Source: Mustelus asterias
Lineage: Eukaryota
Direction: 5' to 3'
Assembly (NCBI RefSeq): GCF_964213995.1
Contig: NC_135827.1
Span: 21,080,001 to 21,144,000, forward strand
Length of the DNA stretch: 64,000 bases
Shown: in pieces, positions 29,287-62,257 of the stretch
Layout: each line of letters starts with the position of its first letter
Position numbering within the stretch: the first letter of the stretch is position 1
The notes under the pieces: generated by a model
Told to the model about the DNA's origin: nothing
The model's database searches: none
What the model saw: the letters and a program-made list of their open reading frames with translations, nothing else
Position numbers and translations under genes: made by a program

Positions 29287-29388
29287 CTTTCAATTGTCTC
29301 TTGCAGATCAGACATAAACATATTGTTACCACAGCGATGAATCCAATAACAGTAATGACTGGAACTAGAATGTGAAGCAATGAAGCAA
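29287..29388 (-). CDS. IgSF receptor copy A, exon 5: uncharged transmembrane exon (VASLLHILVPVITVIGFIAVVTICLCLICKRQLK|G)
   Basis: Acceptor tctctttcacag|TT, donor G|gtaaaa; 102 nt, phase 1-1, open; hydrophobic run followed by basic KRQLK. Too short for the ORF track; translated by hand. Confidence 0.85.
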
Positions 29389-29674: not shown

Positions 29675-30090
29675 TATCTGGGGCTGTACTCGATGGAGTT
29701 CAGAAGGATGAGGGGGGGATCTTATTGAAACTTATAGAATACTGAAAGGCCTCAATAGAGTGGACGTGGGGAAGATGTTTCCATCAGTAAGAGAGATTAG
29801 GATCCGAGGGCATAGCCTCAGAGTAAAGGGACGACACTTTAGAATGGAGAATTTCTTCAGCCAGAGGGTGGTGAATCTGTGGAATTCACTGCCACAAAAG
29901 GCTGTGGAGGACAGGTCATTCATGTATTTAAGGCAGAGATATATAGGTTCTTGATTGGTAAAGTGGTCAAAGGGTACGGGGAAAAGGCGGGCGAATGGGG
30001 TTGAGAAACTAATCAGCCATGATTGAATGGCGGCGGAACAGACTCGATGGGCTAAATGGCCTATTTCTGTTCCTATATCTTATGGTCTTA
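29675..30090 (+). mobile_element. CR1/HER1 LINE 3' end in the copy A exon4-TM intron
   Basis: GLYSMEFRRMR...FFSQRVVNLWNSLPQKAVE and tail. Confidence 0.85.
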
Positions 30091-30344
30091 TAAAAAATAA
30101 TGTCAATCGTGGACAAATGTGTGTTAACCCATAAGTGGTTAAACATGACCATGTCTTGGGGATGGGATGTATTATTTTCTATACAAGTCCATTTTAAAGT
30201 AGAATAAATATTACAAGCCTACACATTCTGAGCCCAAGAAAGAAGATACTTGACAGTTCATCTGTGCTCCCAATTTTCTGAAAGTATTATTCCCTGTAAC
30301 AAACACTGCAATCTTCACACATGTATTATAACAAGCATGTTTAC

Positions 30345-30659
30345 CTTTCACACCTACTATACGAACACTTGCGTTTCTCCAGCCATAGCTATTGTTCGCC
30401 ACACACCAGTACACTCCTCCATCTATAGACTGGAAATTTATCTTTACATTTGAACAATTCAATCCAGATTCAAGTCGTGAGATTTCAGTGTAGTTTTCAC
30501 TGTCCTTCATCCAGATCACAGTGGAAATCGGGTTACTATCCACACAACATTTCAGTTCCAGGAACGAGCCCATTGGGACAGTGATGGAGCTATTGGTCTG
30601 ATGACGATAATTGTCACTGCTGGCCAACCTATACATTATAGTGGGATCTTGTGGTCCAT
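30345..30659 (-). CDS. IgSF receptor copy A, exon 4: C2/I-set Ig domain (Siglec/CD22/MAG-like)
   Basis: Acceptor tttactgttag|AT, donor G|gtaaac; 315 nt, phase 1-1; YGP...LKCCVDSNP...W...GVYWCVANNSYG. Confidence 0.92.
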
Positions 30660-30930
30660 CTAACAGTAAAGATAATGTACACTTAATTTTATGTAAAAAA
30701 CATATGAATATAATGCATACAGAGATAGAATTAGTTAACAAGAACCTGCTCCTACATAGCACACTTCTGATAGGAAAACACCCCAAAATGATTCTTAACA
30801 GTGAAATCAAAAATAAACTGTGTAGAGAGACGGTGATTATTATTCTGCTGGAAGAGTTCACAAAGTGAACTGGGGAGACTGTGGCGTAGCGGTAATGTCA
30901 GTGGGATAGTAATCTAGATGAAGCTTTTCT

Positions 30931-31266
30931 GGGCGGCACAGTAGTTAGCACTGCTGCTTCACAGCTCCAAAGACCTGGGTTCGATTCCCGGCTTGGGTCA
31001 CTGTCTGTGTGGAGTTTGCACATTCTCCTCGTGTCTGCGTGGGTTTCCTCCGGGTGCTCCGGTTTCCTCCAACAGTCCAAAGATGTGCGGGTTAGGTTGA
31101 TTGACCATGCTAAAATTGCCCCTTCGTGTCCTGAGATGCATAGGTTAGAGGGATGAGTGGGTAAATATGTAGGGATATGGGGTAGGGTCTGGGTGGGATT
31201 GTGGCCGGTGCAGACTCGATGGGCTGAATGGCCTCTTTCTGTGCTGCAGGGTTTTTATGATTCTAT
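30931..31266 (+). mobile_element. HE1 SINE present only in copy A
   Basis: Absent at the equivalent position (~54998) in copy B. Confidence 0.85.
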
Positions 31267-32265
31267 GAAAGTCACAGGAGAAAGAGTAAACAGGACAGGA
31301 GGCAGATTGTCAGTATTAGCCCTCATTAGGTGCATTGGTGTGGAAGATAGAAAAGAGAACAGCATGCAGCAGTTGGGTTTGTTGTTCATACAGAGGCAGT
31401 GATTATTGAAAGGCAAGGAGGGAAGCTATGGATTTGTCCAAGAAGGAGTGAAGCCTGAGAGAACACCAGGAGAGTAAGAAAATAGAGGAATAGTGAAAGG
31501 TTAGTGTAAGGCTATATCCAAGAAGAAAGAAATGAAAGGAGGTATGACAGAATAACAGGAAGGGTGAGAAAAAGCCCAATAGAGAGAGAAAAGAAAAAGG
31601 GTGATAAAAATAATTGGGACCAGGTCTGGAACAGCAAACAAAGTGGACACAGGGGAATCCCATTCCTGGGATGAAGGGTTTATCCTATGAAGAAATACTG
31701 CTCAGTTTGGAGTTATACCCATTGGAGTTGATCTTATTAAAGCATTTAAGATTTTGAGGGCACTTTATTGAGTCGATGGAGGGAGAATGTTTCCTCTTGC
31801 GGGGGAAACTGAAATTGGAGACATAGTTTAAGAAAAAGAGGTCTATCTTTTCAGACAAAGTTGAGATTTTTTTTCCTCAGAGGGTTGTTAATCTGTGGAA
31901 TTCTCTTCATCAGCATGGAGTGAAGGCTGAGTGTTTAAACTGATTCAAGTCTAAGTTGAATAGATTTTTGACAGACAAGAGAGCCAAAATTTACATGGGG
32001 CAGACAGGAAAGTGGAGTTGTGACCTCAATCAGATCAGCCGTGATTATATTGGAATGATGGAGCGAGTTCAAAGGCCAAATGGCCTACACCTGGACCCAA
32101 GTCCTATGTTTCTCTGTCCTATGTTCCTATGAAATTGAGGTTACATAGGCATGGCACAGATACCTACATTCTAGCTGTAAAGAGATAATATGGAAGAGAT
32201 AATAAAAGTTAAAATAAAAATTAGCATTACAGAGTACTCAAAATGTAAAAAAAAACCATACTCAC

Positions 32266-32568
32266 ACATAATGTGAAGTTTGATCTCATTTGTCACTGGC
32301 TGGCTGAAAGTCACATGGTTTATCTGACATGTGCAGACAGTTCCATGGTCAGTCAGTTTTGGGGTGATTTCAAGCTGGCTGGAGGCAACAGGTGTACCAT
32401 TCACTATTGCTCTTGAGGTCTGTGTAGTGATGTTTTTTATGATGTTTTCGCCATGACATGTCCAGATAAAGGTAATGTTCTCAAAGTACAACCCCTTGGC
32501 AGAGCAGGTCAAGTTTGACTTGTGTCCAATAACCAAAGCACCATCCCCAGTGGAGATTTCAGGGGGTC
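32266..32568 (-). CDS. IgSF receptor copy A, exon 3: C1-like (SIRP/nectin D2-like) Ig domain
   Basis: Acceptor ctctctcag|GA, donor T|gtgagt; 303 nt, phase 1-1; motifs LTCSAKGLYFENITFIW and CQINHVTF resemble C1-set CxxxGFYPxxIxxxW and CxVxHxxL. Confidence 0.92.
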
Positions 32569-33873
32569 CTGAGAGAGAAAGGAAAAGAAAAGGTAGAGTC
32601 ACGTTACTAGTTAAGTAACCTTCACTTTAGATTAAACAAATCAAGGAACAAAATACATTCAAGAAATACACTCATGTCACTCTAAATTACTATTCAATCA
32701 GGATTATATATTGTAATTTTTAAGTAGTAATTATCTGATCACAGTAACTGACACACCACAGTCCTATGTTTTACCTTACCTACTGGGTAACATTAATGGC
32801 ACACTAAGACAACTTAATGGTAGCAGAAACTTGCCTTATACGAGTTTATTTTGATTAATTTATATTGGGATTCTTCTCTGTGATTAACACCAAGTAATTA
32901 TCAGGTACTTTCAATAGCTCTGACACCTTTTGTTATATTACTTTATGCTTACACTGAGAACAGTTATTTTGTGCGCATTTCCCATATGTGACCTTCTATA
33001 TGTTCTGCTGCAGTGACATCAACAGTGGACACATGCACAGGAATTCCCAAAAGCCTTTGGCAAAAGATAGAGTCTGATACAACTGGAAGCTTATTGGAAA
33101 ACTTCAGTATGGTCTGACAGCATCTGTGGAGAGAGAATAAAGCCAATGTTTCAAGTCCGGGTGACCTTTCAGTCATCCAGGTGAGGTGGTGGCGTAATGC
33201 TGTAACAGTATCAGCGTTTGAAGATGCTATTGGACATTGTGGGCAGGTTGTGATTCCTGACATGACCTTTTTAGCCTCAAGCTGTAGGCTTTCCATGGCA
33301 AATCTCTATTTGCTTTCTGAAATCCCCTGTTTGATATTTCCTGACAAATAGCAATGTATCACACACTTGTGCAATTTCATCATAATTGATTATATGTCAT
33401 AGTTTTGATTAAAGCTTTGAACCAAAGCATTAAAGGGTGAGGGGGGGAGATGTAAGATGCTTTGTCAGAGAGTCAGTGCAGACTCAATGGGCCGAATGGC
33501 CTCATTCTGCACTCTGGGGATTCTATGGTAACTCTTCCCTTTAGAGATGCTGACTGACCCGCTGTGTATTTCTAACATTTTCAAACCTTTCTTGGATTAT
33601 TGATTTTATATTACTGGTCATATATTGAAGTGGAATAATTTGATATTGAAATTCATTTTAAGATGTGCATTTACAACTTCAACATGTAGTTTGAATATTA
33701 ATAGTTTTAAAATCAGCTGTGGGAGCCTTTGTGGCATGATGGGAAAGGTAGCCAAAACAATAAAGAGACAGTAAAGTTGACAGGGAACTATCCCTGATGT
33801 GAGACAGGAATATCACACAATGGAGAAAAGGGACCATCTGTATCAGCTCTGTGACCAATCTGTTGCTGTACGG

Positions 33874-36460
33874 GGAAGCACAGTGGCTCAGTGGTTAGCA
33901 CTGCTGCCTCACAGCGGCAGGGACCCGGGTTCAATTCCAGCCTCGGGTGACTGTCCGTGTGGAATCTGTACATTCTGCCTGTATCTGTGTGGGCTTCCAT
34001 TGGGAGCTCTGGTTTCCTCCCACAGTCCAAAGATGTGCGAGTTAGGTGGATTGCCCATGTTAAATTGCTCCTTAGTATCCAAAATTGTGCACGTTAGATG
34101 GATTGGCCATGGCAAATGTGTAGGGTTACAGGGATAGAATGGGAGAAAGTGTCTGGGTAATGTACTCTGTCAGAGAGAGTCAGTGCAGACTCAAAGGGCT
34201 GAATTGCCTACTTCTGCTCTGTAGGGATTCTATTATCTCTATGTATAAGACCTCCTGTTTTTCTATAACCAAATATATTACACAGCCTTGGTGTCAGACA
34301 GACATTCTGTAGGAGCAGGACTATTTGTCTATCAGGTATGTTTCTGAATAAAGTGTCAGTTACTGTAAACTACACACTGGAATGGTTTCAATCTTTTGCC
34401 CCAACACATGTAATAATGAATAGCTTTAGATATTTCGAGTATTAACTCGAACTCAAGAACAAAGTCTTGAAAAGCTAACCGAGAATGTTATTGACTTGGT
34501 GAATTTTAGCATTCCACCCGCAGCGGGAATCATAGCGGGCGAAGAGCGGATGAAGGAAAGGTTCATTGAACTCAGGCAGGATTTTCCGGTTTCAGGGTGA
34601 GTGAGGCTGGAAAATCCCACCCAAACATGTTTTAACAAATCCAGTAAATCTTAAAAAGAGTAATGTTTGAACGATTGTATAACTAGCTAATATGAAACAG
34701 CGGGATAATCATAGAATCCCTACAGTGCAGAAGGAGGCCATTCGGCCCATTGAGTCTGCAACAACTACAATCCTACCCAGGCCCTATTCCCGTAACCCCA
34801 CGTATTTACCCTGCCAATCCCCCAATACTAAGGGTCAACTTAGCATGGCCAATCAACCTAACCCGCACATCTTTGGACTGTGGGAGGAAACCAGAGCACC
34901 CGGAGGAAACCCACGCAGACACGGGGAGAACGTGCAGACCCTGTTCAGACAGTGAACCAAGTTGGGAATCAAACCCAGGTCCCTGGCACTGTGAGGCAGC
35001 AGTGAAAACCACTGTGCCACCGTGCCACCCTTGTGGTTTGAATATAATAGATATTGAATTTGTAAGGGATTCACCTTAGTGATGGCCTTTGTACCTCCTC
35101 AGACCCTACAGTAACAAGTGATCACAAACCAGGTTTAGAGAACATCATTCTGAACACCAGCACTCATTTACTTGTACTCTTCTGGGTAGCAACACAATTT
35201 GCTTAAATAACCTGGTGCAACATTGTGTGTGTCTGTTAATAATTTTTGATTGTATGAATGGTTTGGTGAACATGTTGTATCTATAGGGGCGGCATGGTGG
35301 CACAGTAGTTGGCACAGCTGCCTAACAGCGCCAGGGACCTGAACTCAATTCCTGGCTTGGGTCATTGTCTGTGTGGAGTTTGCACATTCTCCCCGAGTCT
35401 GCGTGGGTTTCCTCCTGGTGCTCTGGTTTCCTCCCACAATCCAAAGATGTGGGGGTTAGATGGATTGCCCCTTAGTGTCAGGGGGACGAGCTGGGGTAAA
35501 TGCATAAGGTTATGGGGATAGGGCCTGGGTGGGATTGTGCAGACTCAATGGGTCAAATGGCCTCCTTCTACACTGTAGGATTCTGTAATCTATAATTAAT
35601 ACAGACTATACAGTGAATCTTTAAAGTTGCAAAGTCTTCTTACTTATTACATGATATGCAAAGATTTTACCATAACTCTGTATCCGTGTTCCTGGTCCAC
35701 TTCTCTCGATTGGCGGGTAAAGCGGAATCTTCACCACACAGAGATAATTATAATCAGACTGATCAGAAGAAACATTTTCAAGCTTCAGTGATGTAACACA
35801 GTGATTCAAATGACCCAGAGTAACGTCAGGAATGCAGGTCGGTTTATTGCTGCTATAGGAATAGTTGGAAGCCCTTCGAGAGTTTCTGTACCAGTTTGCA
35901 TGTATCCATTGACGAGAAGTTCCATTATAAATAAATGTACAGGTTATTGTGACTGGCTGTCCTCTCAGGACACTGACCAGACTTGGCTGAGTCACCTCCC
36001 CAATGATCAACACACCTGATGGAATAAAAAGCTTTGTCATTTTCATTTTAAGTTGAGTTGGTCCTGATTTTCAATATAAACTGTTTACATCAAAAACTCA
36101 ATTGAAATAGCATGGAACATGAAAGATCCTGATGGCACAGTGGTTAGCACTGCTGCCTCACAGCGCCAGGGACCTGGGTTTGATTCCCGGCTTGGGTCAC
36201 TGTCTGTGTGGAGTTTGCAGGTCCTCCCCGTGTCTGCATGGGATTCCTCCGGGAGCTCTGGTTTCCTCCCACAGACTAAAGATGCGCAGGTTCGGTCGAT
36301 TAGCCATGCTAAATTGCCCCTTAGTGTCCTGGGGTGTGTAGGTTAGAGGGATTAGTGGGGTAAATATGTGGGATTACAGGAATAGGGCCTGGGTGGGATT
36401 GTTGTCGGTGCAAACTTGATGGGCTGAATGGCCTCCTTCTGCACTGTAGGGATTCTATTT
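33874..36460. mobile_element. Several HE1 SINEs flanking the copy A V exon (33874-34240 +, 34709-35030 -, 35285-35590 +, 36133-36460 +); equivalents in copy B at 59225-61375
   Basis: Recurrent head, V-domain and tail motifs. Confidence 0.8.
35671..36015 (-). CDS. IgSF receptor copy A, exon 2: V-set domain with joined J-like motif (EVTQP...TITC...NWY...YLCVVKIPLYPPIERSGPGTRI)
   Basis: Acceptor ttccatcag|GT, donor G|gtaaa; 345 nt, phase 1-1, open; canonical B-Cys, C-Trp and YxC, plus G-strand GPGT. Confidence 0.92.
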
Positions 36461-36531
36461 ATCTTTCTAAGCCTGAGTTCTAAACAAAGTGAGTATTTGA
36501 GACCTGATATTCTACATTAATATTTTCTTAC

Positions 36532-36613
36532 GGTGCTGAATCTATTGTGACTGCCTGTCATCTCAAGACATTGACCAGACTTGGCTAAAACATCTCCCCA
36601 ATGATTGCGATAC
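36532..36613 (-). pseudogene. Degenerate partial duplicate of the V exon 5' end (copy A intron 1)
   Basis: Aligns by eye to 35945-36015 plus its upstream intron; reads GIAIIGEMF*PSLVNVLR*QAVTI; keeps the ttccatcag acceptor and is followed by gtaaga. Confidence 0.75.
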
Positions 36614-37297
36614 CTGATGGAATATAAAGCTTTGTCATCTTCATTTTGAAGTTACTTCCTCATGATTTTCAACAGAAATGGGGAATATTAAAATCTCAAT
36701 TTAAACAGTGTCGAGTTGCGATATCCTTCCAATTGGATCTAATGTAAAAAAAGATTTTCTCAGACTTAATTCTAAACTATGCAACGCTTTGGGACCAGCT
36801 GCTCTGCACTAATATTTTCTTCCATTTTAAATTTGTTTTACTTTGTAAAACTAGACAGATGTCACCACAAATAATCTATAGATTTCTGATGTTACCATAA
36901 GAATCTATAGACTTTAGCTTCCAATTCTGTGAAATGGCTGCTATCAGTGTGAACACTGAGCAATGAATGACACACTTTTACCAAAGATCTACACAACTTT
37001 AAGCAATACAACCCTAATCAGGGTGAGAATTGGCAATCGGTCTACAAAGCATCAACTCAACTGAAATATAAATTATACAGCAGGAAATTTAACCCAGCCA
37101 CTGTGATGAGGGCCTTTGAATAGTGATCTTAACCGAATCATTCAAGTTCAGTCTCACTTGCAATCTCTCTCTTCAGTACAACATACTATAAAAATACTGA
37201 AATATTCTTTAAAAAATGAATCAATTGCCTCTAACATCCATACCCCAGCACTCCGACAATGTACACGTCTCCTGAGCAGAGAGAGAAAATATCTTAC

Positions 37298-37346
37298 CTT
37301 GAACTCCTGTTTGTAAAATGAAAAGCAGCTTCAGCAGGAATTGCAT
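37298..37346 (-). CDS. IgSF receptor copy A, exon 1 (signal peptide MQFLLKLLFILQTGVQ|G)
   Basis: ATG at 37346; 16 codons +1 nt of hydrophobic leader; donor G|gtaaga; phase 1 matches the V exon acceptor; same coding sequence in copy B. Confidence 0.85.
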
Positions 37347-37499
37347 CTTTTCAATGTTTCCCACTGTTCCCGAAGCTGTTTAAACTCTCAGACCCAGGAC
37401 CAGTTATTATCCTGTGCGTCTGTGTTTGAGACATCAATGCGGATGTTCCACCCGGTAATTAACCTGAATTTCACCCTGCAACCGGCAACAACTGTGAAA

Positions 37500-37560
37500 T
37501 ACCATGACTTTCTGCTATCTTAAGGAAGGAAGTTACGTGGGAAGCGAAGATTGCTTTCTT
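37500..37560. promoter_or_regulatory. Putative proximal promoter of copy A with ETS-like (GGAAGGAAGT) and GATA motifs
   Basis: About 170-200 bp upstream of the ATG; also present in copy B (~62410-62470), but that region is duplicated wholesale. Motif matches only. Confidence 0.25.
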
Positions 37561-38057
37561 TTCTCTTTTGATTTAACGGTGTTGTAAAGTTCTACGTTGA
37601 GGAGGCTTTTTAATCAAAGAAAATTAAAGAATCCCGCCAACATATTTCTGCTCCATAATAGCTGATCTAGGACGCTGATTGTAATAGATTCAATACTAAT
37701 TTCAATACTCCAATTATAATACAGTGGGCACCTTACAAGGTTTACATCAGGTTTACTTATCAGGTTTACATTGATTCAAATCGCTTTTCATCCCATGAAT
37801 ACAGTTGTTATTTTCTACATTTACAACACTAATCCTCTACTTATTTGAACTGTGTCAGTTAAATTGGTCAGGAGAATATTTTCTCCTTTCTTAAACTACA
37901 AATAGCTCACACATCTCCCACCCCATCCCTTGTACCCAAGGACCAAAGCTGCATTAATCCACCAATACCTATTTCAGATCACTATTGTCAGGGGCAGCCT
38001 ACAGGTTGGGAGTTACACCACCATTGAGTATCTCTTGAGTTCTTAATGGAAGCAACT

Positions 38058-38129
38058 TCCTCGTTCGTGTAGAGGTTATTATCCTCGTCTGTTACGCTGG
38101 AGACCGGGGTTCAATTCCCCGATGGGGAT
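38058..38129 (+). pseudogene. tRNA-Asp(GTC)-derived pseudogene (anticodon decayed to GTT)
   Basis: TCCTCGTTcGTgTAGaGGTtAtTATCCtCGtCTGTtACGCtGGAGACCGGGGTTCaATTCCCCGAtGGGGA resembles vertebrate tRNA-Asp, with several CpG-type changes. Confidence 0.8.
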
Positions 38130-38145
38130 CTGCCAACTTCCATAT

Positions 38146-39790
38146 GGGCAGCACGATGGCACAGTGGTTAGCACTGCTGCCTCACAGTGCCAAGGACCCA
38201 GGTTCAATTCTGGCCTCGGTCACTGTCTGTGTGGAGTTTGCACTTTCTCCCTGTCTCTGCATGCGTTTTCTCCCACAATCCAAAGATGTGCGGGTTAGGT
38301 GGATTGGCCATGTTTAGTTGAGCCTTAATGTCAGGAGGATTAGCAGGGTAAATGTGTGGGGTTATGGGAATAGGGCCTGAGTGGGATTGTGTTCGGTGCA
38401 AACCCGATGGGCCGAATGGCCTCCTTCTGCACTGTAGGATTCTGTGTTCTTTGATCTCTACTTAGAACCCCACTCTCTGGTGGTTCAGTTAGAATCTCTA
38501 AGGTGGGGCTGGAAGCATTGTTTTCCTCATCACATTAAGAAAATCCCACACAAAGTTTCTACACTGTATGAAAGGTACTTCATGCTGAGCTTCTCACCAC
38601 GCAGTTTGTGAAAGGGAAATGCCTTTCTGGTTAGATTTTCACACCAGTTTCTTTAGTGCACACTGGGGTTAGTTTGTGAGTTGACCCGTTACATTGTCCC
38701 ATTGACATCAATGCATGTCAGAAACTGCTTTCTAAATGCATGTCACAACACAACTGCAGCCTGAAGTCACTGCGGTCACTGTTGAACTACCAGTGCTCCA
38801 CCTTGTGGATAACTGGAACATAGCATTGATAGATTTCTGATGTTCCTCGTGCTAAATTAACCCATCAGCACTCATCCATGTTCGGGGCATGTACTCTGGC
38901 AAAGAGACACTGAAGGAGAAAGGGATGGGAGAAACTAAGGAAGAAATATTCTGATTTAGCAGAGGAAGGGCATTTCAAATAGGAATGTTCTATTATCACA
39001 ATCACAATCATTGAATCTCTACAGTTCAGAAGGAGGCTATTTGGCCAATTGGGTGGGACATTCTGGCTGCGCTCGCCCTGAAACTGGAAAATCCCAGCTG
39101 AGGTCAATGGGCCTTTCCATGGTCCGCCCCTCGCCCGCTACGATTCCCATGGTTGGAATTCCCCCCATTGCACCAACTCTACAACATTTGGCACGGTAGC
39201 ACAGTGGTTAGCACTGCTGCTTCACAGCTCCAGGGTCCCGGGTTCGATTCCCGGCTCGGTCACTGTCTGTGTGGAGTTTGCACATTCTCCTCGTGTCTGC
39301 GTGGGTTTCCTCCAGGTGCTCCGGTTTCCTCCCACAGTCCAAAGATGTGCGGGTTAGGTTGATTGGCCAGGTTAAAAAAAAAATGTCCCTTAGAGTCCTG
39401 GGATGCGTAGGTTAGAGGGATTAGCGGGTAAAATATGTGGGGGTAGGGCCTGGGTGGGATTGTGGTCGGTGCAGACTCGATGGGCCAAATGGCCTCCTTC
39501 TGCACTGTAGGGTTTCTATGTTTCTAAAGGCCATATCCCTGTAAACCCATATATTTACCCCACTAATCCCCCTAACCTACACATATTTGGACCCTAAGGG
39601 GCAATTTAACATGGTCAATTCACCTAACCTGCACATCTTTGGACTGTCGGAGGAAACCGGAGCACCTGGAGGAAACCCACGCAGACACGGGGAGAACGTG
39701 CAAAGTCCACACAGACAGTGACCCAAGGCTGAAATTGAACCTGTGTTCTTGGCGCTGTGAGGCAGCAGTGCTAACCACTGTGCCGCCCCA
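38146..39790. mobile_element. HE1 SINEs (38146-38450 +, 39190-39525 +, 39530-39790 -)
   Basis: Head and V-domain motifs. Confidence 0.8.
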
Positions 39791-40794: not shown

Positions 40795-41882
40795 AAGACC
40801 ATAAGACATAGGAGCAGAATTAGGCCACTCGGCCCATCGAGTCTGCTCCACCATTCAATCATGGCTGATATTTTTCTCATCCCCATTCTCCTGCCTTTTC
40901 CCCATAACCCCTGATCCCCTTATTAATCAATAACCTATCTATCTCTGTCTTAAAGACACTCAATGACCTGGTCTCCACAACCTTCTGCGGCAAAAAGTTC
41001 CACAGATTCACCACTCTCTGGCTGAAGAAATTCCTCCTCATCTCTGTTTTAAAGGATTGTCCCTTTAGCCTGAGGTTGTGGCCTCTAGTTCTAGTTTTTC
41101 CTACTCATGGAAACATCTTCTTCATGTCCACTCTGTCCAGACCTCGCAGTATCCTGTAAGTTTCAATAAGATCCCTCCTGATGCTTCTAAACTCCAACGA
41201 GGACAGACCCAGAATTCTCAGCTGTTCCTCATACGACAAGCTCTTCATTCTTGTGAACCTCCTCTGGACCCTTTCCAAGGCCAGCACATCCTTCCTTAGG
41301 TATGCGGCCCAAAACTGCTCACAATACTCCAAATGGGGTCTGATCAGAGCCTTATACAGCCTCAGAAGTACATCCCTGCTCTTGTATTCTAGCCCTCTCG
41401 AGATGAATGCTAACATTGCATTTGCCTTCGTAGCTGCCGACTGAACCTGCACATTAACCTTAAGAGAATCTTGAACAATGACTCCCAAGTCCTTTTGTGT
41501 TTCTGATTTCCTAAGCACTTGCCCATTTAGAAAATAGTCTATGCCTCCATTCCTCCTTCCAAAGTGCATAACCCCACACTTTTCCACATTATATTCGATC
41601 TGCCACTTCTTTGTCCACTCTCCTAACCTGTCCAAGTCCTTCTGCAGCCCCCCTGCTTCCTCAATACTACCCAACCCTCTACGTATCTTTGAATCATCTG
41701 CAAGCTTAGTAACAGTACCTTCAGTTTCTTCCTCCAAATCGTTAATGTATATTGTGAAAAGCTGTGGTCCTAGCACTGACCCCTGAGGCAGACCACTAGT
41801 CACCGGCTGCCATTCTGAAAAAGACCCCTTTATCCCCGCTCTCTGCCTTGTGCCAGTCAACCAATCCTCTTTCCATGCCAGG
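40795..41882 (-). mobile_element. CR1/HER1 LINE 3' portion (RT)
   Basis: ORF 41105-41914: SGLPQGSVLGPQLFTIYINDL, KLADDSK, LIRPHLEYC. Confidence 0.9.
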
Positions 41883-42917
41883 GACCCTGAATTAGAATTT
41901 CCAAAGGGTCCCATATCTCATCGTCTTGGGTACAACTGGTCTCCAACTATCCAGCAACCGAAAGATTTGGGCCAAAATAATATTTTTTAATAAGAGATTG
42001 GTAAATATTGATATTCAGGGGAGCTGGGTCTTTTGTACATGAATTACAGAAAGTTAACATGTAAGTACAACATGCAGTTTGCAAAGCAGCTGGTGTATTT
42101 ATATTGGAGTATAAGTTCAGGAAATTTTGTTGTAAAACTCTCTTCAAACGTGAATGCCAAGATACTGTTTCCCCTGGCTGGAGAGTCAAAATTTAGGGCT
42201 CATAATCTTTGGACAAAGGGTCTGCCATTTAGAATTGAGATGAGCAAAGTAATTCATTCAGGGTGTTGTGAATCTTTAGAATTCTCTACTTCAGGTGGTT
42301 ATGAATGTTCAGTTAATAGAGATATTCAAGACTGAGATCAGTAAACGTTGGGTACTTAAGGGAGTTAAGAGTTACAGGTCTAGGTTGTGAAAGGGAAGCT
42401 AATGTAAAAGTTCAGACGTGATCTTATTGAATGGTGGAGCAGCTGTGATGAGCCATATTGAATACTCCTGTTCTGAATTCTAATGTTCTAAAACTCTTCA
42501 GAACTTTAGAATTCTCCTATATGCACTATTTGGCACAAACCATTAGGTCATGTTGTTTCACTTCAACATGGGTTGTTTAGTCACTTGGTTAGATAGCTGG
42601 TTGAAAGGTTGAGTGAGTAGAGACAGGATTAGATAAAATGGATAATGTGGAGAAAGTACATTGCAGAGATTAATTTCCTTCCTTCATCTTGTGGTCTTAT
42701 ACATTAAATACTGTCGCTTGGCAGTATTGAACTTGAGTATCACTGAAGGAAAAGCATGTGTCGAAGCTTTTTGTCTTGCACACATCAGCACAATTCACAA
42801 GAAGATGTCACACCACAGCTTGTGGTGGAAAATAAAAGCCCATGGTACAGCGGGTAACATATCAGAATGGATAGAAGATTGGCTCACTGGCAGTAAGTAG
42901 ACTTCGCATAAATGGGT

Positions 42918-43151
42918 CAAAGCAAATTACTGCAGATGCTGGAATCTGAAACCAAAAGAGAAAATGCTGGAAAACCTCAGCAGATCTGACAGCTTCTGTA
43001 AGGAGAGAAAAGAGCTGACATTTCAAGTCCAGATGACCCTTTGTCAAAGCTTTGACAAAGCGTTATCTGGACTCAAAACGTCAGCTCTCTTCTCTCCTTA
43101 CAGATGCTGCCAGACGGGCTGAGATTTTCCAACATTTTCTCTTTTGGTTTT
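42918..43151. mobile_element. Palindromic Penelope-like pLTR element of a second family
   Basis: Inverted arms centred on ctttgtcaaagctttgacaaag; TSD cataaatgggt at 42907-42917 and 43152-43162. Confidence 0.65.
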
Positions 43152-51800: not shown

Positions 51801-52644
51801 AAAAACTAGGGTGAGTGTAGCAGAAACAGCCCAGATCGCTGTGGTTTGAATAATCTGATCCCACTGTCATCAGAACCATGGAACATTCCCGATAATACAT
51901 TCATTAACAAAACAGCTATTTGTTAGAAACATGTTACAAGAAATCAAACATATGTACCCTTCAGAAGATAACTAAACAAATCACGTTTGCAATGATTTTT
52001 ATACCTTTTTTTCCCCCAAGGTAAGTCGGATGTCCGATCCAAATCCACCTTTAACTACAATTGTCCAACGAGGCATCTAATTCTTTATTCAGCCAAGGAC
52101 ATTGGAGGCTCCTTCACAATGACCATGTGTTTAAATTTCTTCAGTAATTTCATCACTCCTCGTTGATGTTGCTGGTGCCTTCAAAAGCTTTACCGATAAA
52201 TGGAACAGTAGCTCTCTTTCCTGTTCACATGCACAATCCACTAGGAAATAATTCAAGTCACTTCAGTTATTGGCTTCTTTCAAACTGTTGCTTGGAAAAT
52301 TAAATACAGAGTTTATCTGATAAAGCACAGGTCTCCTAGTTCCTCGGCATTTCAGAAGGAGGCAAACTCTGACATTGTCCATCAGCATCGCTTCTGTCAA
52401 TATCTCTGTTAGCACTGATGAAAATAAATCCCAAAATGCGATGCTCTCCCCACCACCTCAGGTAATTTGTAAATCAAATTTTGATTAGTACCATTAAGTT
52501 CGTCAAAAATACTAGAGCTTCTGATATGTCATTTCACTGTCTTTTGAGTGGAATCACACTTGCATCTTTCCCAATATGATTAATGAATTTATATCTCATT
52601 TAGTAATAGACATAGAAACTTTACTGTCGAAATTCAATTATGAA

Positions 52645-52960: not shown

Positions 52961-53347
52961 CTCATATGTCTCTGGTATCCTTTTTCTGCTGTTTCAGTTT
53001 TTATTGTGAGACAATTTCAGAAAGAAGAACAAAATAGTCACCATTCCCCCAGTTAATTTTATTTCTTTGAACCTGATCTTTCTCCCATCTATTGAATGGT
53101 AATCTGAAAACAATCGGCATGTGTACATTAATACACACACATCTCAGCAATTTAATGGAAAGTTATATCAGAAGAAGTGAAGACTGATTTAGTTGAGAGC
53201 AATTCATAAGGCGAGGTATATTTCTAAAAGACTATAATGATTACATTAGATGTGAAAGCTGAATTATTTTACCTTTATTGATTTGAAAGAAAACATCAAT
53301 GCTATCATGTTTCTTGGTGATTTAAGCTTTACATCGTTACCTGGTTT

Positions 53348-53442
53348 TCAGCAGTTAACCAAACAACTCAGCGTGATTAGAATCAGAATGATCACAGCAA
53401 CTGCAACGAACCGCATAATCAAAATCCCATACCATGTGTGAC
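53348..53442 (-). CDS. IgSF receptor copy B, exon 5: Arg-containing TM exon ending in a stop (GHTWYGILIMRFVAVAVIILILITLSCLVNC*); predicted protein 368 aa
   Basis: Acceptor cttcttacag|GT, phase 1; hydrophobic helix with a single Arg; TGA at 53350-53348; donor CAG|gtaacg at 53341 makes a 102-nt exon, the same length as the copy A TM exon. Confidence 0.8.
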
Positions 53443-53568: not shown

Positions 53569-53924
53569 GGCCAGGATTCTCCCCCCCCCCCAAAGAAATT
53601 CTAAGTGCCGAATTTGAGTGAACAAGGGAATAACCAGCTGTTTTTTTCAGTGGGATTTTCAAAAAGAATCTCCCACATTCTGAGCACTGCAGAGTTCCCT
53701 AGTGAGATTCACGTTGAAAATCCAGCAGCGGGGTCTATTCCCACCAGAGAGGCCGGCAGCATAGCGCTGAGCGGGCCACTGCACATGTCTGCGCCGTAAT
53801 CAGCGCAAGTGCAGCAGCCCCGCACTGCCGGCCTCCCGATCGCTGGCCAGCTACATTGTTGGCCAGGCTGGCAACCCCCCATCGCTGGCCGCGGGACCCC
53901 ACCCCCCGTCTCCCCCCTCTCAGG
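53569..53924. mobile_element. Truncated GC-rich MITE-like element at the copy B breakpoint
   Basis: Begins ggccaggattctccc, like other local GG-terminal MITEs; ends abruptly at the duplicated intron patch. Confidence 0.45.
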
Positions 53925-54476
53925 CCTAAGTCCTATGTTTCTCTGTCCTATGTTCTTATGAAATTGAGGTTACATAGGCATGGCACAGGTACCTAAATTC
54001 TGGCTGTAAACAGAGAATATGGAAGAGATTTTACGTAAAAAACATATGAATATAATTAACGCAAACAGAGATAGAATAGTTAACAAGAACCTGCTCCTAC
54101 ATAGCACATTTCTGAAAGGAAAACACCCCAAAATGATTCTTAACAGTGAAATCAAAAATAAACTGTGTAGAGAGACGGTGATTATTATTCTGCTGGAATA
54201 AGAATATAAGAAGAATGTCTTATAAAAAATAATGTCAATCGTGGACAAATGTGTGTTAACCCATAAGTGGTTAAACATGACCATGTCTTGGGGATGGGAT
54301 GTATTATTTTCTATACAAGTCCAGTTTAAAGTAGAATAAATATTACAAGCCTACACATTCTGAGCCCAAGAAAGAAGATACTTTACAGTTCATCTGTGCT
54401 CCCAATTTTCTGAAAGTATTATTCCCTGTAACAAACACTGCAATCTTCACACATGTATTATAACAAGCATGTTTAC

Positions 54477-54791
54477 CTTTCACACCTACTATACGAACAC
54501 TTGCGTTTCTCCAGCCATAGCTATTGTTCGCCACACACCAGTACACTCCTCCATGTATAGACTGGAAATGTATCTTTACATTTGAACAATTCAATCCAGA
54601 TTCAAGTCGTGAGATTTCAGTGTAGTTTTCACTGTCCTTCATCCAGATCACAGTGGAAATCGGGTTACTATCCACACAACATTTCAGTTCCAGGACCGAG
54701 TCCATTGGGACAGTGATGGAGCTATTGGTCTGATGACGATAATTGTCACTGCTGGCCAACCTATACATTATAGTGGGATCTTGTGGTCCAT
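54477..54791 (-). CDS. IgSF receptor copy B, exon 4: C2/I-set domain
   Basis: Intact splice sites, 315 nt; 4 aa differences (G>D, F>V, N>H, D>H). Confidence 0.92.
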
Positions 54792-55997
54792 CTAACAGTA
54801 AAGATAATGTACACTTAATTTTATGTAAAAAACATATGAATATAATGCATACAGAGATAGAATTAGTTAACAAGAACCTGCTCCTACATAGCACATTTCT
54901 GATAGGAAAACACCCCAAAATGATTCTTCACAGTGAAATCAAAAATAAACTGTGTAGAGAGACGGTGATTATTATTCTGCTGGAAGAGTTCACAAAGTCA
55001 GAGGAGGAAGAGTAAACAGGACAGGAGGCAGATTGTCAGTATTAGCCCTCATTAGGTGCATTGGGGTGGAAGATAGAAAAGAGAACAGCATGCAACAGTT
55101 GGGTTTGTTGTTCATACAGAGGCAGTGATTATTGAAAGGCAAGGAGGGAAGCTATGGATTTGTCCAAGAAGGAGTGAAGCCTGAGAGAACACCAGGAGAG
55201 TAAGAAAATAGAGGAATAGTGAAAGGTTAGTGTAAGGCTATGCCCAAGAAGAGAGAAATTAAAGGAGGTATGACGGAATAACAGGAAGGGTGAGAAAAAG
55301 GGCCCAATAGAGAGAGAAAAGAGAAAGAAAAAGGGTGATAAAAATAATGGGACCAGGTCTGGAACAGCAAACAAAATGGACACAGGGGAATCCCATTCCT
55401 GGGGTGAAGGGTTTATCCTATGAAGAAATACTGCTCAGTTTGGAGTTATACCCATTGGAGTTGAACTTATTAAAGCATTTAAGATTTTGAGGGCACTTTA
55501 TTGAGTCGATGGAGGGAGAATGTTTCCTCTTGCGGGGGAAACTGAAATTGGAGACATAGTTTAAGAAAAAGAGGTCTATCTTTTCAGACAAAGTTGAGAT
55601 TTTTTTTCCTCAGAGAGTTGTTAATCTGTGGAATTCTCTTCATCAGCATGGAGTGAAGGCTGAGTGTTTAAACTGATTCAAGTCTAAGTTGAATAGATTT
55701 TTGACAGACAAGAGAGCCAAAATTTACATGGGGCAGACAGGAAAGTGGAGTTGTGACCTCAATCAGATCAGCCGTGATTATATTGGAATGATGGAGCGAG
55801 TTCAAAGGCCAAATGGTCTACACCTGGACCTAAGTCCTATGTTTCTCTGTCCTATGTTCCTATGAAATTGAGGTTACATAGGCATGGCACAGATACCTAC
55901 ATTCTAGCTGTAAACAGAGAATAATCAGAGGGGGTCCAAAGTTGAAATAAAAATTAGCATTACAGAGTACTCAAAATGTAAAAAAATCCATACTCAC

Positions 55998-56300
55998 ACA
56001 TAATGTGAAGTTTGATCTCATTTGTCAGTGGCTGGCTGAAAGTCACATGGTTTATCTGACATGTGCAGACAGTTCCATGGTCAGTCAGTTTTGGGGTGAT
56101 TTCAAGCTGGCTGGAGGCAACAGGTGTACCACTCACTATTGCTCTTGAGGTCTGTGTAGTGATGTTTTTTATGATGTTTTCGCCATGACATGTCCAGATA
56201 AAGGTAATGTTCTCAAAGTACAACCCCTTGGCAGAGCAGGTCAAGTTTGACTTGTGTCCAATAACCAAAGCACCATCCCCAGTGGAGATTTCAGGGGGTC
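55998..56300 (-). CDS. IgSF receptor copy B, exon 3: C1-like domain
   Basis: Intact splice sites, 303 nt; 2 aa differences (N>S removing an NGT sequon, V>L). Confidence 0.92.
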
Positions 56301-59300
56301 CTGAGAGAGAAAGGAAAAGAAAAGGTAGAGTCACGTTACTAGTTAAGTAACCTTCCCTTTAGATTAAACAAATCAAGGAACAAAATACATTCAAGAAATA
56401 CACTCATGTCACTCTAAATCACTGTTCAATCAGGATTATATATTGTAATTTTTAAGTAGTAATTATCTGATCACAGTAACTGACACACCACAGTCCTATG
56501 TTTTACCTTACCTACTGGGTAACATTAATGGCACACTAAGACAACTTAATGGTAGCAGAAACTTGCCTTATACGAGTATATTTTGATTAATGTATATTGG
56601 GATTCTTCTCTGTGATTAAAACCAAGTTATTATCAGGTACTTTCAATAGCTTTGTCACCTTTTGTTATATTACTTTATGCTTACACTGAGAACAGTTATT
56701 TTGTGCGCATTTCCCATATGTGACCTTCTATATGTTCTGCTGCAGTGACATCAACAATGGACACATGGACAGGAATTCCCAAAGTCTTCGGCAAAAGATA
56801 GAGTCTAATACAACAGGAAGCTTATTGGAAAACTTCAGTATGGTCTGACAGCATCTGTGGAGAGAGAATAAAGCCAATGTTTCAAGTCCGGGTGACCTTT
56901 CAGTCATCCAGGTGAGGCGGTGGCGTAGTGGTATTGTCGCTAGACTAGTAATCCAGAGACCCAGGATAATTCTCTGGAGACCTGAGTTCGGATCCCACCG
57001 AATCTGAAATGGTGAAATTTGAATTTAAAAAGAATCTGGAATTAAAAAATCTGATGATGACCATGAAACAATTGTTGTAAAAACCCATCTAGTTCACTAA
57101 TGTCCTTTAGGGAAGGAAATCTGCTGTCTTTACCCAATCTGGCCTACATGTGACTCCAGATCCTCAATTCCAACCCTTAGGGTGCTTCAGGTACAAAGTC
57201 AGATTACGGAGTGTCAGTAGGCCTGACACTCCTCAATATATATAGGTGAGACTCCCTGATGGAGCAGGCAATCATTACCTTAATCAGGGAATATTGTGCT
57301 CAAAGACAAAGTTTATTTATTAGTGTCATAAGTAGGCTTACATTCACACTGCAGTGAAATTACTGTGAAAATCCCCGAGTCGCCACATTCTGGTACCTGT
57401 TCAGGCATACTAAGGGAGAATTTAGCATGGCCAATTCACCTAATCCGCATATCTTTTCGAGTGTGGGAGGAAACAGGGGCACCTGGAGGAATCCCACGCA
57501 GACACGGGGAAAATGTGCAAACTCCACACGGGCAGTGACCCAAGCCGGGAATTGAATCTGGGTCCTTGGTGCTGTGGGGCAGCAGTGCTAACCACTGTGC
57601 CACCATGCCACCTTTTTTTGCTCATACTCCAAGAGGCCAACCTCATGCACCTCGTTGAGGTCATTACAGTAGGTTTATGCTTTTTTTCCCCCTCGGTATT
57701 TCACATGCCACAATTGTTGGTTGAAATATTATGGGCCCAGTGCCAAAAAGTTTTCATTCATTGAATGCAATCGGTAAAACAGCATTTATATAGCAAAACC
57801 ACCCACACATTTCACAGAGCACCATTGAACAATGTTTAACACTGATTCATATAAGGATATACTAGGACATTGATCAAAAGCTTCACAATAGAGACATTTT
57901 TAAGAATGGTTTTAAAGGAACCTATCACATATTTGTCCACATTCATTGTAGTTTGTCAATTAAATGTATTGGCTTTGATTAAAACTTTGAGCCAAAACAT
58001 TAACTGCACTCTTTGCTTTAGAGATGCTAACTTACCTGCTGTGTATTCACAACATTTTCAAGCTCTTACTGGATTATTGATTTTATATTGCTGCTCATAC
58101 ATGTAACAATGATGAACAGCATTAGGTATTTCGAACATTCATTGGAACTTGAGGACAAAGTCGGAAATGCTAACTGAGCATGCGGATAAGGGTAAACAGT
58201 ATCTCGTGTGAATTCCAATATGCATTATACAAGAGCCGTCACAATAGACGCAGGATTTTGATGCTACAAATGTAGACAATGTAACCAATTTTAAAAATTG
58301 TAAATTCTCAGAGTTAATGATCAGCAGAAAATGTTGCTTAATCCAAATAAGTATGGAAACTTTACCCTAAACCATGATGGAGATCTTTGAATAATTACAA
58401 ATGGCATCAACAAAACCATTTTGGAAAAACTGCACTAACTTATTGCCAGTGTGCTTAAAGTTAATAATTTTCTCTGAGAACTGAGTTTTATATCTGTATA
58501 TGTGACACAATAAAGCATGTTATTGCATTAGTTATTCCTTTGTGCATCACTCCTGCTGTAACAGTATCAGCATTTGAAGATGTTATTGGACATTGTGGGC
58601 AGGTTGTGAATCCTGACATGACCTTTTTGCCTCAAGCTGTAGGCTTTCCATGGCAAATCTCTATTTGCTTTCTGAAATCCCCTGTTTGATATTTCCTGAC
58701 AAATGGCAATGTATCACACACTTGTGCAATTTCATCATAATTGATTATATGTCATAGTTTTGATTAAAGTTTTGAACCAAAGCATTAAAGGGGGGAAGGG
58801 GGATGTAAGATGATTTGTCAGAGAGTCAGTGCAGACTCAATGGGCCGAATGGCCTCATTCTGCACTCTGGGGATTCTACGGTAACTCTTCCCTTCAGAGA
58901 TGCTGACTGACCCGCTGTGTATTTCTAACATTTTCAAACCTTTATTGGATTATTGATTTTATATTACTGGTCATATATTGAAGTGGAATAATTTGATATT
59001 GAAATTCATGTTAAGATGTGCATTTACAACTTCAATATGTAGTTTGAATATTAATAGTTTTAAAATCAGCTGTGGGAGCCTTTGTGGCATGATGGGAAAG
59101 GTAGCCAAAACAATAAAGAGACAGTAAAGCTGACAGGGAACTATCCCTGCTGTGAGACAGGAATATCACACAATGGAGAAAAGGGACCATCTGTATCAGC
59201 TCTGTGACCAATCTGTTGCTGTACGGGGAAGCACAGTGGCTCAGTGGTTAGCACTGCTGCCTCACAGCGGCAGGGACCCGGGTTCAATTCCAGCCTCGGG

Positions 59301-60585
59301 TGACTGTCCGTGTGGAGTCTGTACATTCTGCCTGTATCTGTGTGGGCTTCCATTGGGTGTTCTGGTTTCCTCCCACAGTCCAAGAACAAAGTCTTGAAAA
59401 GCGAACCGAGAATGTCATGAACTTGGTGAATTTTACCATTCCACCCGCAGTGGGAATCATAGCGGATGAAGGAAAGGTTCATTGAACTCAGGCAGGATTT
59501 TCCGGTTTCAGGGTGAGTGAGGCTGGAAAATCCCACCCAAACATGTTTTAACAAATCCAGTGAATCTTAAAAAGAGTAATGTTTGAACGATTGTATAACT
59601 AGCTAATATGAAACAGAGGGATAATCATAGAATCCCAACAGTGCAGAAGGAGACCATTTGGCCCATTGAGTCTGCAACAACTACAATCCTACCCAGGCCC
59701 TATTCCCGTAACCCCACGTATTTACCCTGCCAATCCCCCGATACAAAGGGTCAACTTAACATGGCCAATCAACCTAACCTGCACATCTTTGGACTGTGGG
59801 AGGAAACCAGAGCACCCGGAAGAAACCCACGCAGACATGGGGAGAACGCGCAGACTCTGTTCAGACAGTGAACCAAGCTGGGAATCAAACCCAGGTCCCT
59901 GGCGCTGTGAGGCAGCAGTGAAAACCACTGTGCCACCGTGCCGCCCTTGTGGTATGAATGTAATAAATAATGAAATTGGAAGGGATTCACCTTAGTGATG
60001 GCCTTTTCACCTCCTCAGACCCTACAGTAACAAGTGATCACAAACCAGGTTTAGAGAACATCATTCTGAACACCAGCACTCATTTACTTGTACTCTTCTG
60101 GGTAGCAACACAATTTGCTTAAGTAACCTGGTGCAACATTGTGTGTGTCTGTTAATAATTATTGATTGTATGAATGGTTTGGTGAACATGTTGTATCTAT
60201 AGGGCGGCATGGTGGCACAGTGGTTAGCACAGCTGCCTAACAGCACCAGGGACCTGGACTCAATTCCTGGCTTGGGTCACTGTCTGTGTGGAGTTTGCAC
60301 ATTCTCCCCGTGTCTGCGTGGGTTTCCTCCTGGTGCTCTGGTTTCCTCCCACAGTCCAAAGATGTGGGGGTTAGATGGATTGCCCCTTAGTGTCAGGGGG
60401 ACGAGCTGGGGTAAATGCATAAGGTTATGGGGATAGGGCCTGGGTGGGATCGTGCAGACTCAATGGGCCAAATGGCCTCCTTCTCCACTGTAGGATTCTA
60501 TAATCTATAATTTATACAGACTATACAGTGAATCTTTAAAGTTGCAAAGTCTTCTTACTTATTACATGATATGCAAACACTTTAC

Positions 60586-60930
60586 CATAACTCTGTATCC
60601 GTGTTCCTGGTCCACTTCTCTCGATTGGTGGGTAAAGCGGAATCTTCACCACACAGAGATAATTATAATCAGACTGATCAGAAGAAACATTTTCAAGCTT
60701 CAGTGATGAAACACAGTGATTCAAATGACCCAGAGTAACGTCAGGAATGCAGGTCGGTTTATTGCTGCTATAGGAATAGTTGGAAGCCCTTCGAGAGTTT
60801 CTGTGCCAGTTTGCATGTATCCATTGGCGAGAAGTCCCATTATAAATAAATGTACAGGTTATTGTGACTGGCTGTCCTCTCAGGACACTGACCAGACTTG
60901 GCTGAGTCACCTCCCCAATGTTCAACACAC
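60586..60930 (-). CDS. IgSF receptor copy B, exon 2: VJ-type V domain
   Basis: Intact splice sites, 345 nt; 3 aa differences from copy A (I>N, Y>H, T>S). Confidence 0.92.
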
Positions 60931-61446
60931 CTGATGGAATAAAAAGCTTTGTCATTTTCATTTTAAGTTGAGTTGGTCCTGATTTTCAATATAAACTGTT
61001 TACATCAAAAACTCAATTGAAATAGCATGGAACATGAAAGATCCTGATGGCACAGTGGTTAGCACTGCTGCCTCACAGCGCCAGGGACCTGGGTTTGATT
61101 CCCGGCTTGGGTCACTGTCTGTGTGGAGTTTGCAGGTCCTCCCCGTGTCTGCATGGGATTCCTCCGGGAGCTCTGGTTTCCTCCCACAGACTAAAGATGT
61201 GCAGGTTCAGTCGATTAGCCATGCTAAATTGCCCCTTAGTGTCCTGGGGTGTGTAGGTTAGAGGGATTAGTGGGGTAAATATGTGGGATTACAGGAATAG
61301 GGCCTGGGTGGGATTGTTGTCGGTGCAAACTTGATGGGCTGAATGGCCTCCTTCTGCATTGTAGGGATTCTATTTATCTTTCTAAGCCTGAGTTCTAAAC
61401 GAAGTGAGTATTTGAGACCTGATATTCTACATTAATATTTTCTTAC

Positions 61447-61528
61447 GGTGCTGAATCTATTGTGACTGCCTGTCATCTCAAGACATTGACCAGACTTGGC
61501 TAAAACATCTCCCCAATGATTGCGATAC
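61447..61528 (-). pseudogene. Degenerate partial duplicate of the V exon 5' end (copy B intron 1)
   Basis: Same sequence as 36532-36613. Confidence 0.75.
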
Positions 61529-62208
61529 CTGATGGAATATAAAGCTTTGTCATCTTCATTTTGAAGTTACTTCCTCATGATTTTCAACAGAAATGGGGAA
61601 TATTAAAATCTCAATTTAAACAGTGTCGAGTTGCGATATCCTTCCAATTGGATCTAATGTAAAAAAAAGATTTTCTCAGACTTAATTCTAAACTATGCAA
61701 CGCTTTGGGACCAGCTGCTCTGCACTAATATTTTCTTCCATTTTAAATTTGTTTTACTTTGTAAAACTAGACAGATGTCACCACAAATAATCTATAGATT
61801 TCTGATGTTACCATAAGAATCTATAGACTTTAGCTTCCAATTCTGTGAAATGGCTGCTATCAGTGTGAACACTGAGCAATGAATGACACACTTTTACCAA
61901 AGATCTACACAACTTTAAACAATACAACCCTAATCAGGGTGAGAATTGGCAATCGGTCTACAAAGCATCAACTCAACTGAAATACAAATTATACAGCAGG
62001 AGATTTAACCCAGCCACTGTGATGAGGGCCTTTGAATAGTGATCTTAACCGAATCATTCAAGTTCAGTCTCACTTGCAATCTCTCTCTTCAGTACAACAT
62101 ACTATAAAAATACTGAAATATTCTTTAAAAAATGAATCAATTGCCTCTAACACCATACCCCAGCACTCCGACAATGTACACGTCTCCTGAGCAGAGAAAG
62201 TATCTTAC

Positions 62209-62257
62209 CTTGAACTCCTGTTTGTAAAATGAAAAGCAGCTTCAGCAGGAATTGCAT
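62209..62257 (-). CDS. IgSF receptor copy B, exon 1 (signal peptide)
   Basis: Same coding sequence as 37298-37346; donor gtaaga. Confidence 0.85.

Follow-up and report, generated by a model that had tools for sequence, protein, structure and literature searches.

A predicted family of VJ-C1-C2 paired receptors in cartilaginous fishes and the coelacanth, with a likely chimeric activating copy in Mustelus asterias

Among the receptor systems of the immunoglobulin superfamily (IgSF) described so far, SIRP-alpha recruits SHP-1/2 (PMC12975943), Siglecs bind sialic acid through an F-strand Arg, and the domain order V-C1-C2 is that of CD22 d1-d3 and MAG Ig1-3 (both PMC5624926, PMC5150538). The CD28X motif has been given as YxCx6PPPx4/5GxG (PMC11599192), and homogenised ectodomains between opposing receptors have been documented (PMC3210942). 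The present analysis concerned a 64,000-nt stretch of contig NC_135827.1 of Mustelus asterias, a smooth-hound (the window, to which positions refer unless the contig, G000:C68, is named). The window carried gene 1 on the minus strand, encoding a predicted receptor of three Ig domains (D1 to D3) in the order VJ-C1-C2, and a second copy upstream of it, copy 2. Judged on sequence, gene 1 is probably the inhibitory member of an old paired-receptor family of sharks, rays, chimaeras and the coelacanth, and copy 2 its newly assembled activating twin. The family is apparently unnamed, real and ancient, and of a known kind (paired opposing receptors); no description of it was found in the literature covered, subscription papers lying outside that coverage.

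Gene 1 consisted of a leader exon with a predicted signal peptide (coding part 37298..37346; ATG and GT donor, phase 1, in agreement with RefSeq model P0008 and the catshark orthologues), a VJ exon (35671..36015), a C1-set exon (32266..32568), an I/C2-set exon (30345..30659) and an uncharged transmembrane (TM) exon (29287..29388), all on the minus strand, followed left of the window by five tail exons (G000:C68 21,072,909-21,055,406) that carry TIYALV, VSYADI and SEYSAI. The V, C1 and I/C2 exons all had AG/GT ends and phase-1 junctions and were in frame. P0008 (495 aa, Mustelus asterias), automatically named "sialic acid-binding Ig-like lectin 12", agreed with the gene 1 exons letter for letter, save a few residues at the leader/V junction; its join there (36015-35998) differs from the canonical acceptor of P0004 and the catsharks, and the P0008 model looks imperfect. 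Because a leader and a TM segment are combined with a tail holding three conserved tyrosine motifs, gene 1 is a predicted inhibitory receptor, with the layout of a type I membrane protein (leader, VJ, C1, I/C2, TM, tyrosine-motif tail). Four contig sets presumed to be RNA, compared with the TM and I/C2 exons, overlapped the intronic repeat and nothing else, which speaks neither for nor against expression. An earlier note on this DNA had placed a receptor at 30345..36015, and these limits proved to be exact exon ends (V 36015-35671, C1 32568-32266, third domain 30659-30345); all the motifs it quoted were found where it had put them on the minus strand, and each recurs about 24-25 kb upstream in the window. 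Its span took in the three Ig exons but neither the leader and TM exons nor the tyrosine-motif tail. Its reading as a non-rearranging VJ-C1-C2 receptor was supported in part, the ITIM-type tail (immunoreceptor tyrosine-based inhibitory motif), the paired partners with a TM Arg and the chimeric duplicate having passed unnoticed.

The VJ exon encodes the canonical B-F cysteines, an extra C75/C87 pair, a YPP loop and a GPGT G strand. The GPGT strand sits within the V exon, in line with the non-rearranging VJ domain with a germline J-like strand that had been proposed. D1 scored 25.7 bits against Pfam V-set (E 1.3e-5), slightly below the cut-off of 26. Its predicted model (predicted local distance difference test score, pLDDT, 89) gave structural alignments mostly to TCR and Ig V domains: in VIA, entries could not be separated by score (Z 10.9-12.2), TCR/Ig V domains making up most of them, with IL-18R-beta, LRIG3, PD-1, SIRP-alpha and some non-immune Ig domains beside these, and the best 50 Foldseek rows were all Ig/TCR V domains. 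Siglec and nectin entries were absent among the best 50 VIA rows, which excludes nothing. In the family alignment, C75 and C87 were conserved in 20/20 V domains, as were the canonical C40/C107. The FG loop followed the pattern C-x6/7-xPP-x4-GxG, with the PP pair in 20 of the 21 family rows and GxG in all 21; the first Pro of PPP is missing, and the spacing to GxG resembles that of CD28X/CTLA4, in keeping with the likening of this loop to CD28/CTLA4.

D2 scored 35.2 bits against Pfam C1-set and 21.2 against C2-set_2 and lay nearer to true C1 domains than to Siglec or nectin D2, as expected of the C1-type domain claimed for it. Its top PDB matches were shark UrIg2 and Ig constant domains (UrIg2, IgM, IgA, SIRP-gamma). 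Across the family, C1-set was matched by 18/21 members, C2-set_2 by 15/21 and Ig_CD22 by 0/21, and the sawshark paralogue P0028 retains the textbook C1 signature GFYP...NSDGTF in D2. D3 matched Pfam Ig_3 (35.7 bits) and I-set (32.3 bits) with no C1-set match; its PDB matches were DCC, contactin, DSCAM and MAG, DCC giving the best single-domain stretch among the matches shown. By these profiles D3 is a generic I/C2 domain and not Siglec-specific, and the description of it as Siglec/CD22-like was not borne out. Since CD22 and MAG already have the order V-C1-C2, that order alone shows neither hybridity nor family, and the idea of a hybrid origin is weak.

Long-tailed members made up 14 of the 21 aligned proteins; V[SP]YADI was present in 14/14, and the distal motif [ST]xYxx[IV] and the proximal motif YAxV each in 13/14. 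Five proteins (P0023, P0024, P0028, P0042 and P0054) had an Arg near the start of the TM segment and no tyrosine motif, and because of these five the family was read as one of paired receptors. Of the remaining two, one was short without Arg and one (P0004) had no TM. Near-identical ectodomains on an ITIM tail and on a charged TM with a short tail, the pattern by which paired opposing IgSF receptors are recognised, were found in smooth-hound and coelacanth, where the inhibitory and activating partners had 96-98% identity in each domain; the values were 61-85% in the sevengill shark and 80% and 50% in the catshark. In the C1+C2 tree the activating forms did not come together as a clade, 6 rows requiring 6 changes. 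The coelacanth Arg lies within a TM segment resembling that of its inhibitory partner, whereas sevengill shark, sawshark, catshark and smooth-hound have in common an Arg-TM exon of a distinct type; we infer that the activating form arose at least twice. Three models from other sharks (P0015, P0025 and P0027) have a V-V-C1-C2, V-C1 or V-only ectodomain on an inhibitory tail and may be isoforms or annotation errors.

New here is copy 2, likely a chimera in which an inhibitory ectodomain is joined in frame to an Arg-TM exon. Its ectodomain exons (54477..62257, minus strand; leader 62257-62209, VJ 60930-60586, C1 56300-55998, I/C2 54791-54477) were all open, and the ectodomain was 97% identical to that of gene 1, from which it differs by 9 replacement codons and 3 silent ones. 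An Arg-containing TM exon (53341..53442, minus strand; IMRFVAVAV ... LVNC, stop), a duplicate of the gene 3 TM exon, follows the I/C2 exon in frame with a phase-1 join, and its LVNC-stop end is that of sevengill shark P0024. Gene 3 itself lies 19 kb right of the window and is broken, its C1 exon carrying a stop and a frameshift and its D3 exon another stop. At 52080..52220 (minus strand) lies an AATAAA-bearing exon, likely 3' untranslated in copy 2; RefSeq P0004, having skipped the TM exon, reads it as coding. Copy 2 is therefore described here as the likely newly assembled activating twin, made of the gene 1 ectodomain and the Arg-TM exon of broken gene 3.

The duplicated blocks were 30085-38754, which corresponds to 54217-63665, and 41380-53904, which corresponds to contig DNA including the gene 3 TM exon. 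At the duplication junction (53904..54216) were two templated patches copied from intron 3, with 93-96% identity to the donor sequences. A simple homologous crossover was considered and rejected: next to the exon, introns 4 of genes 1 and 3 have no more than 42 bases in common, and given the templated patches an event of replication type is the better fit. The units differed by only 1.0-1.85% substitutions, as would two alleles assembled in tandem, in which case the chimeric activating gene would not exist. Such a false duplication appears improbable: the region is gap-free in the assembly, several private insertions separate the units, the junction patches are 4-7% off their donors, which an assembler is not expected to create, and both loci are annotated by RefSeq. 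The comparison favours a real recent duplication. At E<=0.01 the V domain matched the smooth-hound genome in four places: gene 1, copy 2, gene 3 and a broken gene 3 copy at 7.93-7.95 Mb on G000:C68. Around that last copy, 13 Mb away, G000:C68 7,931,800-7,954,150 and 8,007,337-8,007,627 contained the broken gene 3 copy (96-98%), an older V remnant and a broken P0028-type D3 exon. These adjoin exons that resemble CDON by eye as well as a tandem satellite, and the assembly has one gap in the vicinity.

All 17 orthologue matches at E<=1e-10 were cartilaginous-fish proteins (sharks, rays, chimaera), and the profile search gave 20 cartilaginous-fish matches at E<=1.6e-94 before a drop to 1e-23. The family has few genes per genome, and the inhibitory member was retained in nearly every species sampled. 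A coelacanth protein, with a near-identical partner in its cluster, was found by the D1 library search (E 7.9e-5, rank 19/30); word-based searches found neither the coelacanth genes nor ray-finned or tetrapod orthologues. Because the single-V search reached the coelacanth only at that E-value and rank, absence outside cartilaginous fish and coelacanth is not shown. Held-out hidden Markov models (HMMs) were shark-only, built without the coelacanth rows and P0028; against them the coelacanth V, C1 and C2 domains scored 55/57/87 bits and the best outsiders 37/36.5/27, the outsider set being the open reading frames of 59 shark loci plus 10 outsider proteins, with almost no Siglec C2 exons in the D3 reference set. 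Since the coelacanth domains outscored the outsiders, the family likely predates the split of sharks and bony fish.

The gene cluster was flanked on the right by NCAPD3 (E 1e-24), VPS26 and JAM-like exons (weak JAM-A match), presumably JAM3, and on the left by JHY, B3GAT1 and a Bar-type homeobox gene, presumably BSX. The human counterparts are genes of 11q24-25, which is not known to contain a SIRP or Siglec. Crude scans showed no IGSF9B exon in the 650 kb left of gene 1. Elsewhere in the genome, contig G000:C20 has Siglec/CD22-type V and D2 exons that keep the F-strand Arg, clustered at 0.1-1.1 Mb and 5.4-5.8 Mb, and nectin-like D2 exons, clustered at 3.4-4.0 Mb; several related C1 exons, B7-H6-like by eye, lie at G000:C9 109.25-109.43 Mb. 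On the contig of gene 1, cold-inducible RNA-binding protein-like fragments (by eye), possibly processed copies, were seen at G000:C68 21,259,316-21,259,828, for which Pfam gave no match, and near 20,681,100. The window also contained a broken 5' fragment of a V exon inside intron 1 of gene 1 (36534..36614, minus strand; repeat near 61529), a tRNA-Lys-like sequence suggested by translation at about 22,250-22,300 (minus strand), and, at 41,100-46,500 and 63,570-64,000, reverse-transcriptase fragments of long interspersed nuclear elements with a GIY-YIG-like retroelement piece (by eye).

Several observations weigh against the paired-receptor reading. The splice that would join copy 2 to the Arg-TM exon is a prediction, and RefSeq P0004 (54477-52220), a model that like P0008 looks imperfect, skips that exon; D3 of the catshark pair was only 50% identical; and after outgroups were added, family monophyly was weakly supported (V 78/64 among labelled groups, D2 60/58). 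In Foldseek, the whole three-domain model had MAG Ig1-3 on top, then SYG-2, SIRP-alpha (rank 6), Necl-4, SIRP-gamma, nectin-3 and CD22; MAG and Siglec-8 gave continuous profile matches over D2-D3; and ESM Atlas feature matches included clusters with 23-79% of members carrying Ig_CD22. The MAG and Siglec-8 matches, together with the RefSeq automatic names, the V-C1-C2 order of CD22 and MAG, and a tail whose ITIM plus distal motif is also Siglec-like, would suit a divergent Siglec/MAG relative that had lost sialic-acid binding. Grouping of D1 with the Siglec V clade (p-AU, approximately unbiased test, 0.22) and of D2 with Siglec and nectin jointly (0.19) was not rejected either. As family membership this is largely refuted, and we consider it very unlikely. 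The sialic-acid Arg is absent, as the earlier note had it, with no Arg after the F-strand Cys in any of the 21 rows, and that Cys is present in 20/20 V domains, whereas shark Siglec V exons are of YYFRI type without it. Grouping of D2 with Siglec D2 was rejected (p-AU 0.023), Siglec V domains formed a starred clade of their own in the V tree and reached at most 18 bits against the family HMM, and none of the 36 Ig_CD22 matches in the genome lay on the contig of gene 1 (C68), the Siglec-type V exons of this shark being on other contigs. The three domains were thus not found together in one known family with orthologous synteny, and the synteny is unlike that of the shark's Siglecs. A nectin/CADM-type adhesion molecule would have the same domain order; nectin-3, Necl-4 and CADM were among the structure matches, and IgSF adhesion genes are common in the syntenic region of gene 1. 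It is nonetheless extremely improbable, given rejection of D2 with nectin D2 (p-AU 0.013), at most 25.5 bits for nectin-like D2 against the family HMM, the J-like GxG strand, the tyrosine-motif tail and the Arg-TM partners.

The D2 tree used reference exons labelled by eye, with SIRP represented by one gecko protein (P0058), and the V trees did not discriminate between NITR-I, Siglec and SIRP as relatives of D1. An early SIRP-family branch (VJ-C1-C1 paired receptors) with a different third domain would account for the germline VJ, the C1-type D2, the paired forms and the YADI/SEY tail, seen also in P0058, which was the top-scoring vertebrate outsider in the profile search (E 8.5e-16); D2 with SIRP C1 was not rejected (p-AU 0.19), and SIRP-alpha was among the Foldseek matches noted above. 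This origin seems unlikely all the same. The extra Cys pair is missing from SIRP V, V with SIRP V was the least favoured of the three V groupings, though not rejected (p-AU 0.06), and SIRP C1 was outscored by tapasin-like, Ig-like and B7-H6-like C1 exons. The neighbours of gene 1 are 11q24-25 genes, not those of SIRP at human 20p13. In addition, D3 is I/C2 and not C1, whereas SIRP consists of V and two C1 domains (PMC12975943). The gecko model P0058 starts with a retrotransposon-like segment, probably a mis-joined exon; this segment accounted for 63 of the 64 matches of P0058 in the genome, so shark SIRP was not located.

In a further alternative, D1 would be a homologue of the NITR I domain, and the family the sister, in cartilaginous and lobe-finned fishes, of the NITRs found in ray-finned fish. 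Among outsider V domains the highest scores went to six-cysteine goby domains (37 bits) with their third and fourth Cys aligned to C75 and C87, and grouping with NITR-I was not rejected (p-AU 0.18). The runx1/donson region is paralogous to 11q24-25. According to one preprint, the I domain combines six Cys with a germline J, ITIM and TM-Arg forms occur, no shark NITR was known, and holostean NITRs lie beside runx1/donson (bioRxiv 10.1101/2021.06.11.448072). On the other side, just two of the four extra Cys are common to both, NITRs have a V-I architecture that lacks C1, and the best tree does not join them; the goby proteins were called NITR by Cys count (they fit the NITR I definition), and no NITR chain was matched in the PDB at E<=1e-12. 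Such an origin is conceivable, if doubtful.

How the pair would work is inferred by analogy with the known paired receptors SIRP, Siglec-5/14, PIR and NITR. The V domain may bind a cell-surface protein ligand, perhaps via the conserved PP loop; the tail tyrosines, once phosphorylated, would recruit SHP-1/SHP-2 and damp leukocyte activation. The tail-less Arg-TM form would pair with an adaptor of FcR-gamma/CD3-zeta type, bearing an immunoreceptor tyrosine-based activation motif, and signal "on". In the smooth-hound, a tandem duplication of 23-25 kb would have put the gene 1 ectodomain before the TM exon that belonged to gene 3, the broken activating gene. More generally, the activating form may be re-matched repeatedly to the inhibitory ectodomain, selection keeping the pair alike (compare PMC3210942). 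Because the PP loop is conserved and the inhibitory member is kept in nearly all species sampled, the ligand might be a conserved self protein, possibly B7-like, a suggestion offered tentatively. With still less confidence, the family could be an early-jawed-vertebrate relic of a pre-RAG VJ-C1 class, sister to NITRs, comprising a checkpoint receptor with a CTLA4-like loop that was apparently lost from tetrapods and whose activating partner was rebuilt more than once, by way of the separate shark Arg-TM exon, an Arg within the coelacanth inhibitory TM exon, and the exon-shuffled smooth-hound chimera.

On/off receptors of shark leukocytes are poorly known, and this low-copy family, which databases mislabel as Siglec or MAG, can be traced across cartilaginous fish and coelacanth. 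With it, the few non-rearranging VJ-C1 receptors that figure in debates over the origins of antigen receptors, SIRPs and NITRs gain one more. In copy 2, a tandem duplication appears to have been caught in the making of an activating twin while the broken predecessor is still alongside; with both in place, the pathogen-decoy idea for paired receptors becomes testable in an early vertebrate lineage.

Compared with known systems, the gene 1 family resembles shark UrIg and UrIg2 in its non-rearranging germline VJ and C1, UrIg2 being the top PDB match of D2. UrIg2, as its abstract presents it, is an antibody-like V-C1-C2-C3 dimer in an antigen-receptor complex, whereas D2 of gene 1 fell outside the Ig/TCR-like C1 clade; that abstract and a term search of the paper gave no mention of SIRP, Siglec, ITIM or JAM. 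With the CD28 family (CTLA4, CD28X, CD28H-like) gene 1 shares an FG loop resembling the CD28X motif, but it has three domains instead of a single extracellular V and two prolines instead of three, and its locus is none of the synteny blocks in the section on four new CD28-family paralogues (PMC11599192). Ray-finned-fish NITRs likewise have a germline J, ITIM/TM-Arg pairs and two extra Cys at aligned places of the I domain; they are V-I receptors that lack C1, are encoded in large clusters and have six Cys in the I domain, while the gene 1 family has four conserved V Cys, a C1 domain and few genes. Siglecs (CD22/MAG and Siglec-5/14) are alike in V-C1-C2 order, ITIM tail and pairs kept alike, order and tail not being Siglec-specific (PMC5624926, PMC5150538). 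They are unlike it in that the gene 1 family has no F-strand Arg and no Ig_CD22 match, and has a canonical B-F disulfide, a J-like strand and another locus; nor does it follow the Siglec-type V pattern, in which strand B carries CxxxxC, strand F is without Cys and a disulfide links D1 to D2. SIRP-alpha and SIRP-beta1 share the germline VJ, the C1-type D2, three Ig domains, pairs of ITIM and charged-TM forms and similar tail motifs. The TM charge of SIRP-beta1 is a Lys; the gene 1 family differs from SIRP by its TM Arg, as well as by an I/C2 D3, an extra V cysteine pair, the PP loop and different neighbours.

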